Below are positions 59,301 through 64,000 of a stretch of DNA of 64,000 nt, in pieces. A program made the position numbers. Origin of the DNA: Escherichia coli (GTDB taxonomy: Bacteria > Pseudomonadota > Gammaproteobacteria > Enterobacterales > Enterobacteriaceae); assembly GCF_003018115.1 (NCBI RefSeq), contig NZ_CP027457.1; one strand, given 5' to 3'. Positions within the stretch are counted from its first letter, which is position 1. The number at the start of each line of letters is the position of its first letter.

Positions 59301-62300
59301 GGTAAACATGCAGGATGACTACCATTGCATTTACTGTATCGTTGACCAACACGCGATCACCGTGCGCCAGGATGCACAGAAGCTGCGTAAAGCGACGCTG
59401 GATACGCTGGCCTTGTATCTGGCTTGTGGTATCGATCCTGAGAAAAGCACCATTTTTGTTCAGTCCCACGTACCGGAACATGCGCAGTTAGGCTGGGCAC
59501 TGAACTGCTATACCTACTTCGGCGAGCTGAGCCGCATGACGCAGTTTAAAGATAAATCTGCGCGTTATGCCGAGAACATCAACGCTGGTCTGTTTGACTA
59601 TCCGGTGCTGATGGCAGCGGACATCCTGCTGTATCAAACTAATCTGGTACCGGTGGGTGAAGACCAGAAACAGCACCTGGAACTGAGCCGTGATATCGCC
59701 CAGCGTTTCAACGCGCTGTACGGCGATATCTTTAAGGTGCCGGAGCCGTTTATTCCGAAATCTGGCGCGCGCGTAATGTCGCTGCTGGAGCCGACCAAGA
59801 AGATGTCCAAGTCTGACGATAACCGCAATAACGTTATTGGCCTGCTGGAAGATCCGAAATCTGTAGTGAAGAAAATCAAACGCGCGGTCACCGACTCCGA
59901 CGAGCCGCCGGTAGTTCGCTACGATGTGCAGAACAAAGCGGGCGTTTCCAACCTGCTGGATATCCTTTCTGCGGTAACGGGCCAGAGCATCCCGGAACTG
60001 GAAAAACAGTTCGAAGGCAAGATGTATGGTCATCTGAAAGGCGAAGTGGCTGATGCCGTTTCCGGTATGCTGACTGAATTACAGGAACGTTACCACCGTT
60101 TCCGCAACGATGAAGCCTTCCTGCAACAGGTGATGAAAGACGGCGCAGAAAAAGCCAGCGCGCACGCTTCCCGTACGCTAAAAGCGGTGTACGAAGCGAT
60201 TGGTTTTGTGGCGAAGCCGTAATATCAAAACGCTCGGACGGTCCCCTCGCCCCTTTGGGGAGAGGGTTAGGGTGAGGGGAGCAGGCAAGCGCCAGTGGGA
60301 ATTACCCTTTGCTCGCATTGTCGAATAAATCACTTCGTCATCACTCTGAAACCGGGGAAACCCGGTTTTTTTATCCTCATTTGCAATAATCCGAAAAAAT
60401 GTGAAGCGCCTCGCCGTTTCCACATCTCGCTGTTGCGCCTTATCTTCAAATTCCTGAAGATATAAATATTCACTTTATTGAAAATTTACTATGCGTCGAA
60501 CGTTTATCAAAAAAGAAGGCGTCGTTATCACAACGCTGGCCCGTTATTTGTTAGGTGAAAAGTGCGGTAATCGACTGAAAACCATAGATGAGCTGGCAAC
60601 TGAATGCCGTTCATCCGTTGGCCTGACGCAGGCCGCGTTGAAAACGCTGGAATCAAGCGGAGCGATACGGATTGAACGCCGTGGGCGCAATGGCAGTTAT
60701 CTGGTCGAAATGGATAACAAAGCGCTGCTGAGTCATGTGGATATCAATAACGTGGTGTGCGCGATGCCCTTGCCCTATACCCGTTTGTACGAAGGCCTGG
60801 CGAGCGGATTGAAAGCCCAGTTTGATGGCATTCCTTTTTACTATGCGCATATGCGCGGCGCGGATATTCGCGTGGAGTGTTTACTTAACGGCGTGTATGA
60901 CATGGCGGTGGTTTCCCGACTGGCGGCGGAAAGTTATCTCACGCAAAAAGGGTTATGCCTCGCGCTGGATTTGGGGCCGCACACCTACGTTGGCGAGCAC
61001 CAGTTGATTTGCCGTAAAGGCGAGTCCGCAAACGTGAAGCGCGTGGGGCTGGATAACCGTTCGGCGGATCAGAAAATCATGACCGATGTCTTTTTTGGCG
61101 ATAGTGATGTGGAACGAGTCGATCTCTCCTATCACGAGAGTTTACAACGCATTGTTAAAGGCGATGTTGATGCGGTTATCTGGAACGTGGTGGCGGAAAA
61201 CGAACTGACCATGCTGGGATTAGAAGCGACGCCGCTCACAGACGATCCGCGATTTTTACAGGCCACCGAAGCCGTGGTCCTGACGCGAGTCGATGATTAC
61301 CCAATGCAACAACTGCTGCGTGCAGTTGTTGATAAACATGCCCTGCTTGCCCATCAACAACGCGTGGTGAGTGGGGAACAGGAACCCAGTTATTAAACGA
61401 AAGGCATCTGATATGGAAACCAGACTCAACCTGCTTTGCGATGCAGGCGTTATTGATAAGGACATCTGCAAAGGCATGATGCAGGTCGTCAACGTACTGG
61501 AAACAGAGTGCCATCTGCCGGTGCGCAGTGAGCAAGGAACGATGGCGATGACACATATGGCGAGTGCACTGATGCGCAGTCGCCGTGGTGAAGAAATTGA
61601 GCCACTGGATAACGAGTTGCTGGCAGAGCTGGCGCAATCCACTCACTGGCCAGCCATTTTACAATTGCATCAGGTGTTGTTGAAGGAATTCGCGCTGGAA
61701 GTTAACCCGTGTGAAGAAGGCTATTTACTGGCCAACCTTTATGGATTATGGATGGCTGCTAACGAAGAGGTTTGAAGCTCCCGACAAATCCACGTCGCAC
61801 AACCTAAATATTCAAAAAAATGAATATTTAATTCAAGGAACAGAAACGAGGCAACAAGATGTTTGTAGAAGCATTGAAACGCCAGAACCCGGCGCTGATT
61901 TCCGCCGCACTAAGCCTGTGGCAGCAGGGCAAGATCGCCCCGGACAGCTGGGTGATCGACGTGGATCAGATACTGGAAAACGGTAAGCGGCTGATTGAGA
62001 CGGCGCGGCTTTACGGCATTGAACTGTATCTGATGACCAAACAATTCGGTCGTAACCCATGGCTGGCGGAAAAACTGCTGGCGTTGGGCTACAGCGGCAT
62101 TGTGGCGGTGGATTACAAAGAGGCGCGAGTCATGCGCCGCGCTGGTTTGCCGGTGGCGCATCAGGGGCATCTGGTACAAATCCCTTGTCATCAGGTTGCT
62201 GACGCCGTTGAACAGGGCACCGACGTCATCACCGTGTTTACTCTCGACAAAGCGCGGGAAGTTTCTGCGGCGGCGGTGAAGGCCGGGCGAATCCAGTCTG

Positions 62301-64000
62301 TGCTGCTCAAAGTTTATAGCGACGATGATTTTCTTTATCCGGGGCAGGAGAGCGGTTTTGTACAGCATTCGCTGCACGAGGTGGTTGCTGAAATTAAGAA
62401 ACTGCCGGGGCTGCATTTAGCCGGACTAACCCATTTCCCTTGCCTGCTTTGGGATGAGGCTGCCGGGAAAGTTTTGCCGACACCGAATCTTCACACGCTG
62501 ATACAGGCTCGGGATCAACTGGCGAAATCTGGTATTGCGATTGAGCAACTGAACGCACCTTCTGCGACCAGCTGCACTTCGTTGCCATTGCTGGCGCAAT
62601 ACGGTGTGACTCATGCCGAACCCGGTCATGCGCTGACGGGCACTATTCCGGCAAACCAGCAGGGCGATCAGCCTGAACGTATTGCGATGCTCTGGTTAAG
62701 TGAAATCTCCCATCATTTCCGTGGCGACAGCTACTGCTACGGCGGCGGTTACTACCGTCGTGGTCATGCGCAACATGCGCTGGTGTTTACGCCAGAAAAT
62801 CAAAAGATTACTGAAACCAATCTCAAAACTGTGGATGACAGCAGTATCGACTACACCCTGTCGCTGGCAGGCGAGTTTCCGGTAAGCAGTGCAGTGGTGC
62901 TCTGTTTCCGCACGCAGATTTTTGTCACCCGTAGCGATGTGGTGCTGGTGTCTGGTATTCAGCTCGGCGAACCAGAAATAGTTGGTCGTTATGACAGCCT
63001 CGGCAACCCTCTGGAGGCGTAAATGGCGCGATTTGTGGTGTTAGTGATTGATAGCTTTGGCGTAGGCGCAATGAAAGATGTCACGCTGGTGCGTCCGCAG
63101 GATGCCGGGGCGAATACCTGTGGTCACATCCTGAGCCAGTTGCCGCATTTGCAGCTACCAACGCTGGAGAAGCTGGGGCTAATCAACGCATTGGGTTATG
63201 CGCCAGGCGATATGCAGCCGTCAGACTCCGCAACCTGGGGCGTGGCAGAGCTGCAACATGAAGGTGGCGATACCTTTATGGGGCATCAGGAAATTTTAGG
63301 CACGCGCCCGTTACCGCCGCTGCGGATGCCCTTTCGCGATGTGATTTACCGTGTTGAGCAGGCATTAGTATCCGCCGGTTGGCAGGTGGAGCGCCGTGGC
63401 GATGAACTGCAATTTCTGTGGGTCAATCAGGCGGTTGCGATTGGCGATAATCTCGAGGCGGATTTAGGCCAGGTCTATAACATTACCGCCAATCTCTCTG
63501 TGATCTCTTTTGACGACGCAATCAAAATTGGTCGTATCGTGCGTGACCAGGTACAGGTCGGTCGGGTCATTACATTTGGCGGCCTGTTAACCGACAGTCA
63601 GCGTATTCTCGATGCCGCAGAAAGCAAAGAAGGGCGCTTTATTGGTATTAATGCGCCGCGTTCTGGCGCTTATGACAACGGTTTCCAGGTCGTGCATATG
63701 GGCTATGGCGTCGATGAAAAAGTGCAGGTGCCACAAAAACTGTATGAAGCAGGCGTGCCAACCGTGCTGGTGGGTAAGGTGGCAGATATCGTCAACAATC
63801 CTTATGGCGTGAGCTGGCAAAATCTGGTGGATAGCCAGCAGATTATGGATATCACCCTCGACGAATTTATCACCCATCAGACAGCGTTTATTTGCACCAA
63901 CATTCAGGAAACCGACCTCGCTGGTCACGCAGAAGACGTCGCACGTTATGCCGAACGTTTGCAGGTCGTTGACCGTAATCTTGCTCTCCTGGTTGAGGCG

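Follow-up and report, generated by a model that had tools for sequence, protein, structure and literature searches.

The 64,000-nt stretch of Escherichia coli DNA analyzed here (contig NZ_CP027457.1 of the assembly GCF_003018115.1; hereafter the window) ends with four genes downstream of trpS: yhfZ, yhfY, yhfX, and yhfW. They begin an eight-gene cluster, yhfZYXW-php-yhfUTS. It is rather probable that this cluster encodes a substrate-inducible, catabolite-sensitive pathway for the uptake and the breakdown or salvage of one small molecule. The catabolic or salvage reading is based on the combination of five enzymes with a putative transporter, a sensor-repressor of the cluster's own, and a candidate site for catabolite control. 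The original prediction had proposed a small catabolic or salvage pathway; this is supported and refined here, as the larger cluster has four more genes behind these four. It had also called the substrate not established to its knowledge, and neither the searched literature nor the names of the solved structures give a function. The literature matches to the cluster proteins are screens, gene lists, and strain notes, and no functional study of these proteins was found among them.

The locus has long been annotated and is partly solved structurally, so that the orphan cluster itself is already known and is no new discovery. New here are three candidate operators, a CRP-like site, the PRD fold of YhfY, the RpiB-like fold of YhfU, and the mismatch of the YhfW cap; a conserved core was also defined. 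The php/yhf cluster is among the larger E. coli gene blocks without a function, despite the structures of YhfZ, YhfX, and YhfS. If its substrate were found, a gap in the known metabolism of E. coli would be closed, and the module could be annotated in many gut and insect-associated bacteria. The leads for functional work are the DNA to footprint, a gene whose deletion is predicted to switch the pathway on, and the proteins of the core.

Gene organization

The four genes are co-oriented and tightly spaced, as originally predicted; the list of open reading frames (ORFs) and the sequence agree on this. The gaps are 16 nt (yhfZ-yhfY), 83 nt (yhfY-yhfX), and 0 nt (yhfX-yhfW).

60491–61396, + strand: yhfZ, 301 aa (amino acids), predicted regulator with an HTH_41 winged helix and a YhfZ_C sensor domain
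61413–61775, + strand: yhfY, 120 aa counted from the ATG, predicted stand-alone single PRD
61859–63022, + strand: yhfX, 387 aa, predicted fold-type III pyridoxal phosphate (PLP) enzyme
63023–64000, + strand: yhfW, first 325 of 408 codons, ending at the window edge
63013–63025, + strand: putative translational-coupling junction, with GGAGG at 63013–63017, the yhfX stop TAA at 63020–63022, and the yhfW start ATG at 63023–63025

The full length of YhfW (408 aa) was taken from the complete genome beyond the window. For yhfY, a GTG at 61371, ahead of the ATG, opens the longest ORF. The direct adjacency of the yhfX stop and the yhfW start (TAAATG), noticed before, can be read in the sequence. This junction, together with the GGAGG 5 nt ahead of the ATG, suggests that both products are made in a fixed proportion.

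E. coli GF3-3 carries the stretch with 100% identity, and RefSeq names the same four genes there. Extension beyond the window, which had been recommended, reveals php, yhfU, yhfT, and yhfS downstream in the GF3-3 annotation. All eight genes are co-oriented, with gaps of 0–83 nt; php overlaps yhfW by 4 nt, and yhfU, yhfT, and yhfS follow with gaps of 10–11 nt. No terminator was detected between the four genes by a terminator scan of the part of the cluster within the window. The same strand, the short gaps, and the lack of an internal terminator are the layout of a single operon. At least 80% of the stretch is present in one place in 5069 of the 5426 complete E. coli genomes (~93%), which indicates that yhfZYXW are real conserved genes, not chance ORFs.

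Candidate operators and a putative yhfZ promoter

One genome per species was scanned for conservation. A YhfZ relative was found in 80 loci, which represent at least 12 genera; their gene content was examined by tblastn with the eight E. coli proteins. Two regions, the yhfZ leader and the yhfY-yhfX gap, contain palindromes of one type, besides promoter-like elements upstream of yhfZ.

60441–60462, no strand: candidate YhfZ operator O1, TATCTTCA-N6-TGAAGATA, a perfect 8+8 palindrome over the putative -10
60464–60487, no strand: candidate YhfZ operator O2, AAATATTCA-N6-TGAAAATTT, adjoining O1 and ending 3 nt before the yhfZ ATG
61806–61829, no strand: candidate YhfZ operator OX, AAATATTCA-N6-TGAATATTT, a perfect 9+9 palindrome 30 nt 5' of the yhfX ATG
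60400–60415, + strand: CRP-like site, TGTGA-N6-TCGCC, a putative CRP binding site centered ~61 nt upstream of the predicted transcription start
60433–60438, + strand: candidate -35 of the yhfZ promoter, TTGCGC, whose TTG is conserved across genera with constant spacing to the CRP-like site
60456–60461, + strand: candidate -10 of the yhfZ promoter, GAAGAT, which would pair with TTGCGC

The region 60380–60490, which had been suggested as a target of YhfZ, thus holds two candidate operators, O1 and O2. O1 has a single match in the 64 kb and no match in 100 shuffles. OX has no mismatch. By chance, none of the three palindromes would be expected in the 64-kb window. Across genera, O1 is kept at -46 or -51 relative to yhfZ, and TTCA-N6-TGAA is seen within 160 nt upstream of yhfZ in 76 of the 80 loci. 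OX is the sole conserved island of the otherwise unalignable yhfY-yhfX spacer in an alignment of 14 genera, and each of the 76 Enterobacterales loci has it, with 0–3 mismatches. Sites of the operator type are found in the 80 loci almost only at the yhfZ promoter and before yhfX.

In an operon table derived from a regulatory database, the entry runs from yhfX to yhfS and leaves yhfZY out. Based on this table, and on the conserved palindrome in the 83-nt yhfY-yhfX gap, transcription is probably divided between two regulated units, yhfZY and yhfXW-php-yhfUTS, and the second would have its own regulated start at OX.

In 60 of the 80 loci, from several genera, the pattern TGTGA-N6-TC has a fixed position relative to the yhfZ start (-87 to -91), and in the cross-genus alignment it lies 33 nt ahead of the conserved TTG. 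If TTGCGC is the -35, the center of the CRP-like site would be near -61, the -10 would lie under O1, and the start, near 60468, under O2. We infer from this layout that the yhfZ promoter could be a CRP-dependent, autorepressed catabolic promoter. No GG/GC pair of a sigma-54 element is visible by eye in the yhfZ leader. An Rfam scan of 59900–64000 gave nothing near any gathering score, so neither a riboswitch nor a known small RNA is recognized there.

The E. coli-type operator motif was not found at the cluster in the distant low-GC loci. Perfect 9-6-9 palindromes of other sequence lie beside the cluster in two of them, AAGGTGCAA-N6-TTGCACCTT and GAACTTAAT-N6-ATTAAGTTC (L083 3585–3608 and L088 6369–6392). 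Their geometry is as in the E. coli sites, a suggestive but weak resemblance. In one Photorhabdus locus (L036), an operator-like sequence, AAATATTCAAAAAAATGATAATTT, is seen at 5439–5462 between the 3' ends of genes for a phosphotransferase system (PTS) EIIC-GAT and a PAS-LuxR protein. It was rejected as a further member of the regulon, as it sits between convergent genes. An integrase gene is located immediately 5' of yhfZ in the same locus. Five Vibrionaceae loci (L077–L081) contain the palindrome AAATCCTCAATTTATTGAAAATTT ~185 nt into php, which could be an operator or a by-product of coding; E. coli php has no palindrome at the matching codons.

YhfZ and YhfY

The assignment of YhfZ as a helix-turn-helix regulator holds. 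It matches HTH_41 and YhfZ_C in Pfam, and it passes the NCBIfam model YhfZ_full (373.6 bits, cut-off 260). RefSeq names it a GntR-family protein; the E. coli protein matches HTH_41, not PF00392, and the GntR matches in distant YhfZ homologues are only "faint" or "weak". Regulators of the GntR family usually act as repressors on a palindrome close to their target genes, and candidate palindromes are present at both control regions here. The C-terminal domain has been solved (PDB 2ozz) and deposited as "hypothetical". A search of the YhfZ profile against PDB returned this structure as the only match. PF14503 is found among solute-binding profiles, and the sensor domain of YhfZ can be considered as solute-binding-protein-like.

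YhfY was predicted to be a small PRD-like protein, and it has the helical PRD fold, though its score against the Pfam PRD model PF00874 (17.8 bits) is below the 23-bit cut-off. A PRD carries two conserved phosphorylatable histidines. In YhfY, His48 in the first PRD motif is invariant. Position 108 is Asn in 19 of 20 proteobacterial sequences and Cys in the remaining one (L080), and only the homologue in L083 has His there. The helical fold and the conserved first-motif histidine are shared with LicT/BglG, Mga/AtxA, and the stand-alone PRD protein LSEI_2718 (PDB 3nuf). Unlike the PRD regulators, YhfY has a single PRD and no RNA- or DNA-binding domain, besides the Asn at position 108. Its sole NCBIfam match is the EF_0829 PRD family (TIGR03582), with 27 bits against a cut-off of 69, which indicates that YhfY is not a member of that family.

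YhfX and YhfW

YhfX was described earlier as a PLP protein of the alanine-racemase fold, and this agrees with its Pfam matches, Ala_racemase_N (78.6 bits) and YhfX-like_C. Its PLP barrel carries the catalytic lysine at the expected place, Lys61, which is invariant in 35 family members. The N-terminal PLP barrel and this lysine are shared with alanine and ornithine racemases. The nearest relatives are alanine racemase (the best PDB match, with E 6e-7), ornithine racemase, and D-amino-acid aldolases, all far below the family thresholds. Unlike in the racemases, the C-terminal domain belongs to a separate Pfam family, and the score against the ornithine racemase model Orr is 31.5 bits against a cut-off of 480. 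With the YhfX-like_C domain and scores below the family level, YhfX stands apart from the alanine racemase family proper. The YhfX family is small, with 605 representatives among 1.84 billion. PDB 4kbx is YhfX, deposited as "uncharacterized". These matches place YhfX among the fold-type III PLP enzymes, in a small and distinct family.

YhfW was predicted to be a phosphopentomutase-like metalloenzyme cut by the window, which is borne out by a match to the Pfam Metalloenzyme superfamily and by aligned catalytic motifs. NCBI names it "phosphopentomutase". In the core, the motifs DS-GxG, GxDTxxGH, and ADHGNDP/HTRE of the Bacillus cereus phosphopentomutase (PDB 3m8w) are kept, so that YhfW has the metal ligands and the Thr nucleophile of DeoB in an alkaline-phosphatase-superfamily core. 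The roles of the catalytic residues of phosphopentomutase were reportedly worked out by Panosian et al. in 2011. YhfW differs from DeoB in its cap, as residues ~102–238 do not align with the B. cereus enzyme, and in its context, which is not a deo operon. It also fails both deoB models (TIGR01696, 145.8 bits with a cut-off of 341.2; NF003766, 183.5 with a cut-off of 256). It passes NF009049, also called "phosphopentomutase", with 733 bits over the full length. Given the failed deoB models and the unaligned cap, the name in RefSeq and NF009049 reflects homology and no tested function. By homology, YhfW is an alkaline-phosphatase-superfamily phosphomutase related to DeoB.

Php, YhfU, YhfT, and YhfS

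Php belongs to the PTE family, and a crystal structure of it is available. Its nearest named relatives are the phospho-furanose lactonases (NF045706). Php resembles those of the Lmo2620/Bh0225 type as a binuclear-metal amidohydrolase of the same PTE family, and differs from them in its score, 98 bits against a cut-off of 630. The literature searched gave no substrate of Php.

YhfU is a DUF2620 protein whose best structural matches are RpiB enzymes. With 117 aa, in comparison with 148–212 aa in RpiB chains, it lacks the C-terminal part of RpiB. It has an invariant Cys within a C-N-T-G loop and can be described as a small RpiB/EIIB-like protein. YhfT is a membrane protein of its own family, and its profile has no match in PDB. 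YhfS, which has a YhfS-like C-terminal domain, belongs to the PLP enzymes of fold type I, and its relatives are found in the Cys/Met gamma-lyase group. PDB 4j8l is YhfS, deposited as uncharacterized.

Distribution of the cluster

The genomic-context check recommended earlier finds the same gene families clustered in Enterobacterales, Vibrionaceae, and distant low-GC bacteria. The order Z-Y-X-W-php-U-T-S is seen in Escherichia, Citrobacter, Klebsiella, Trabulsiella, Buttiauxella, Cedecea, Serratia, and Providencia, and the order in Vibrionaceae is Z-Y-php-U-T-X-W. The commonest adjacency in the cluster is X followed by W. The yhfU and yhfT genes exist in two divergent types, which are always exchanged together, even within one genus. 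With ~40% and 32% identity to their E. coli counterparts, the divergent types remain members of the DUF2620 and YhfT families. The loci that carry them are as follows.

Divergent yhfU/yhfT: L008, L009, L021, L035, L045, L048, L049, L073, and all loci of Photorhabdus and Xenorhabdus

Distant members of the YhfX family (33–47% identity) are accompanied by the same families in shuffled order on their contigs (L083, L085, L086, L088, L090, and L092), and one of these (L092) carries all eight families. In L083, from a 1.88-Mb low-GC genome, amidase-like and NagB/Pgl-family genes are added, the latter after the cluster. In L086, an HPr-like gene (12490–12720) is located directly 3' of the YhfW homologue. 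In L085, the YhfW homologue is fused to an esterase domain (11161–13023), and this contig needs genetic code 4.

Signs of decay of the cluster are seen occasionally. One E. coli strain (NZ_CP065615.1) has IS5 within the cluster, and shortened YhfZ proteins are found in Shigella (P0046 and P0090). The yhfZ gene has been reported as truncated in Yersinia pestis.

A possible pathway and its alternatives

The closest known systems are the D-glucosaminate PTS pathway of Salmonella (dgaABCDEF) and the related conserved cluster EF_0829/AHA_3910. These clusters couple uptake to a PLP enzyme of fold type I whose substrate is a phosphorylated alpha-amino aldonate; the EF_0829 type has, in addition, a small PRD protein that stands alone and an enzyme of the amidohydrolase superfamily. 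The yhf cluster would resemble them as a catabolic gene set of the amino sugar acid type, and the only NCBIfam match of YhfY is found there. Unlike dga, it has no mannose-type PTS, SelA-type lyase, or 2-keto-3-deoxy-6-phosphogluconate-type aldolase, and has YhfX, YhfW, Php, YhfU, and YhfT instead.

The pathway is proposed to work as follows. A YhfZ dimer would bind the 9-6-9 palindromes, O1 and O2 over its own promoter, with autorepression as the result, and OX upstream of yhfX. The substrate or an intermediate, bound in the solute-binding-like domain, would release YhfZ from the DNA. The CRP site near -61 would make the yhfZ promoter dependent on cyclic AMP. YhfY, a lone PRD with an invariant His, may modulate YhfZ or the transporter by histidine phosphorylation. 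The steps of the chemistry can be proposed with low confidence. The compound might be imported by YhfT with the RpiB-like YhfU, and a phosphorylated lactone might be opened by Php. The intermediate might be of the alpha-amino acid type, for example a 2-amino-2-deoxy-aldonate phosphate, and YhfX might invert or activate its alpha-carbon. The amino group might then be removed or transferred by YhfS, and the phosphate moved on the sugar skeleton by YhfW. The mutase, the RpiB-like protein, and the lactonase-type hydrolase point to a phosphorylated sugar skeleton; the two PLP enzymes, of racemase and of gamma-lyase/aminotransferase ancestry, point to an alpha-amino acid center. The substrate would probably be a phosphorylated sugar derivative with an amino group. 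A 2-amino-2-deoxy-aldonate phosphate or its lactone would agree with both hints and is named as the substrate class, by analogy with the catabolism of D-glucosaminate, as a tentative and rather doubtful choice.

Several facts weigh against an inducible catabolic pathway of this kind. No experiment tying any cluster protein to a substrate was found. The cluster has no kinase and no recognizable PTS permease to account for the phosphate that YhfW, Php, and YhfU imply. All the likenesses of the enzymes to characterized families are far below the family thresholds, so the proposed chemistry is a reasoned guess only. A consensus scan detected no sigma-70 promoter upstream of yhfZ or yhfX. Within the window by itself, the CRP-like pattern lacks significance (3 matches, 1.8 expected), and the right half of the site is weak. 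Besides, yhfW is absent from all Photorhabdus and Xenorhabdus loci, and Vibrionaceae lack yhfS, which indicates that neither is essential to the core chemistry. The pairing of X with W is thus not obligatory. As far as gene content can tell, W and S are frequent accessories to an indispensable core made up of Z, Y, X, Php, U, and T. It is conceivable, albeit quite unlikely, that YhfY, YhfU, and YhfT constitute a new phosphotransfer-coupled uptake and sensing module, which would supply a new pathway for a compound of the phosphorylated amino-sugar-acid type. Such a module would phosphorylate its cargo or signal transport to the repressor YhfZ, and it would explain a cluster without a kinase.

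Salvage of pentoses or nucleosides is an unlikely alternative for the function of the cluster. Here YhfW would be a second phosphopentomutase and YhfU a second ribose-5-phosphate isomerase, and together they would turn a pentose-1-phosphate into a pentulose-5-phosphate. An amino acid, either attached or released, would be processed by the PLP enzymes, so that a pentose-amino acid conjugate, for example, could be the substrate. The NCBI name of YhfW and its retained catalytic motifs agree with this, as do the RpiB enzymes as the best structural matches of YhfU. The nearest named relatives of Php are also consistent, as they act on pentono-1,4-lactone 5-phosphates according to the NCBIfam name. 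Php-related enzymes with this activity were reportedly described by Xiang et al. in 2012. However, YhfW fails the deoB equivalog model (145.8 against 341 bits), and it is the cap, the part that positions the substrate in DeoB, that cannot be aligned. YhfU, at 117 aa, is without the C-terminal part of RpiB, no phosphorylase or nucleosidase is seen among the cluster genes, and yhfW is dispensable in two genera.

The genes could instead be silent relics, a cryptic or decaying cluster whose substrate is not met in the present niches of E. coli. The searched literature reports no phenotype or function, and the IS5 insertion in one strain and the truncations of YhfZ in Shigella and of yhfZ in Y. pestis would fit such decay. 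The genes are also mentioned in a paper on the genome-reduced strain DGF-298. Against this, the ORFs are intact in ~93% of the 5426 complete E. coli genomes, the eight frames, the operators, and the Shine-Dalgarno sequence are kept across genera in which the proteins are only 55–75% identical, and the catalytic residues are retained. These features indicate purifying selection and make a relic highly unlikely. It is hardly credible that the cluster consists of two unrelated neighboring units, with yhfZY controlling something else and yhfX and yhfW acting in separate pathways. The 83-nt yhfY-yhfX gap with its own palindrome and the operon table, which has yhfX through yhfS and not yhfZY, could be read in that way, but the palindrome is of one type at both the yhfZ promoter and yhfX. 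Homologues of YhfZ, the PRD protein, YhfX, and YhfW are still clustered in distant bacteria with their order shuffled, and this would be difficult to account for unless they shared a function.

Flanking regions

The 3' end of trpS is at 60222. It is followed by a repeat of the bacterial interspersed mosaic element (BIME) type and then by an intrinsic terminator, which indicates that the cluster is a unit separate from dam-rpe-gph-trpS.

60223–60345, no strand: dispersed BIME-type repeat in the trpS-yhfZ spacer, with no part in the function of the cluster
60348–60369 (to 60376 as a feature), + strand: intrinsic terminator of trpS, a 9-bp stem with 5 G-C pairs and a T run after it

The element upstream of yhfZ has been classed as a BIME and a possible attenuator (PMC2965389). 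The repeat in the spacer is found at a median of 4 and a maximum of 12 places per E. coli genome, and at least 80% of it is present in one place, anywhere in the genome, in only 1524 genomes. The genes dam, rpe, gph, and trpS are tightly coupled as well, with 8-nt overlaps of rpe and gph (58467–58474) and of gph and trpS (59218–59225).

Beyond yhfS in GF3-3 are yhfL and cysG, in the opposite orientation. In K-12, the frl genes sit between yhfS and yhfL. The frlABCDR fructoselysine genes are not located between yhfS and yhfL here (L001 19702–20223, downstream of the window).

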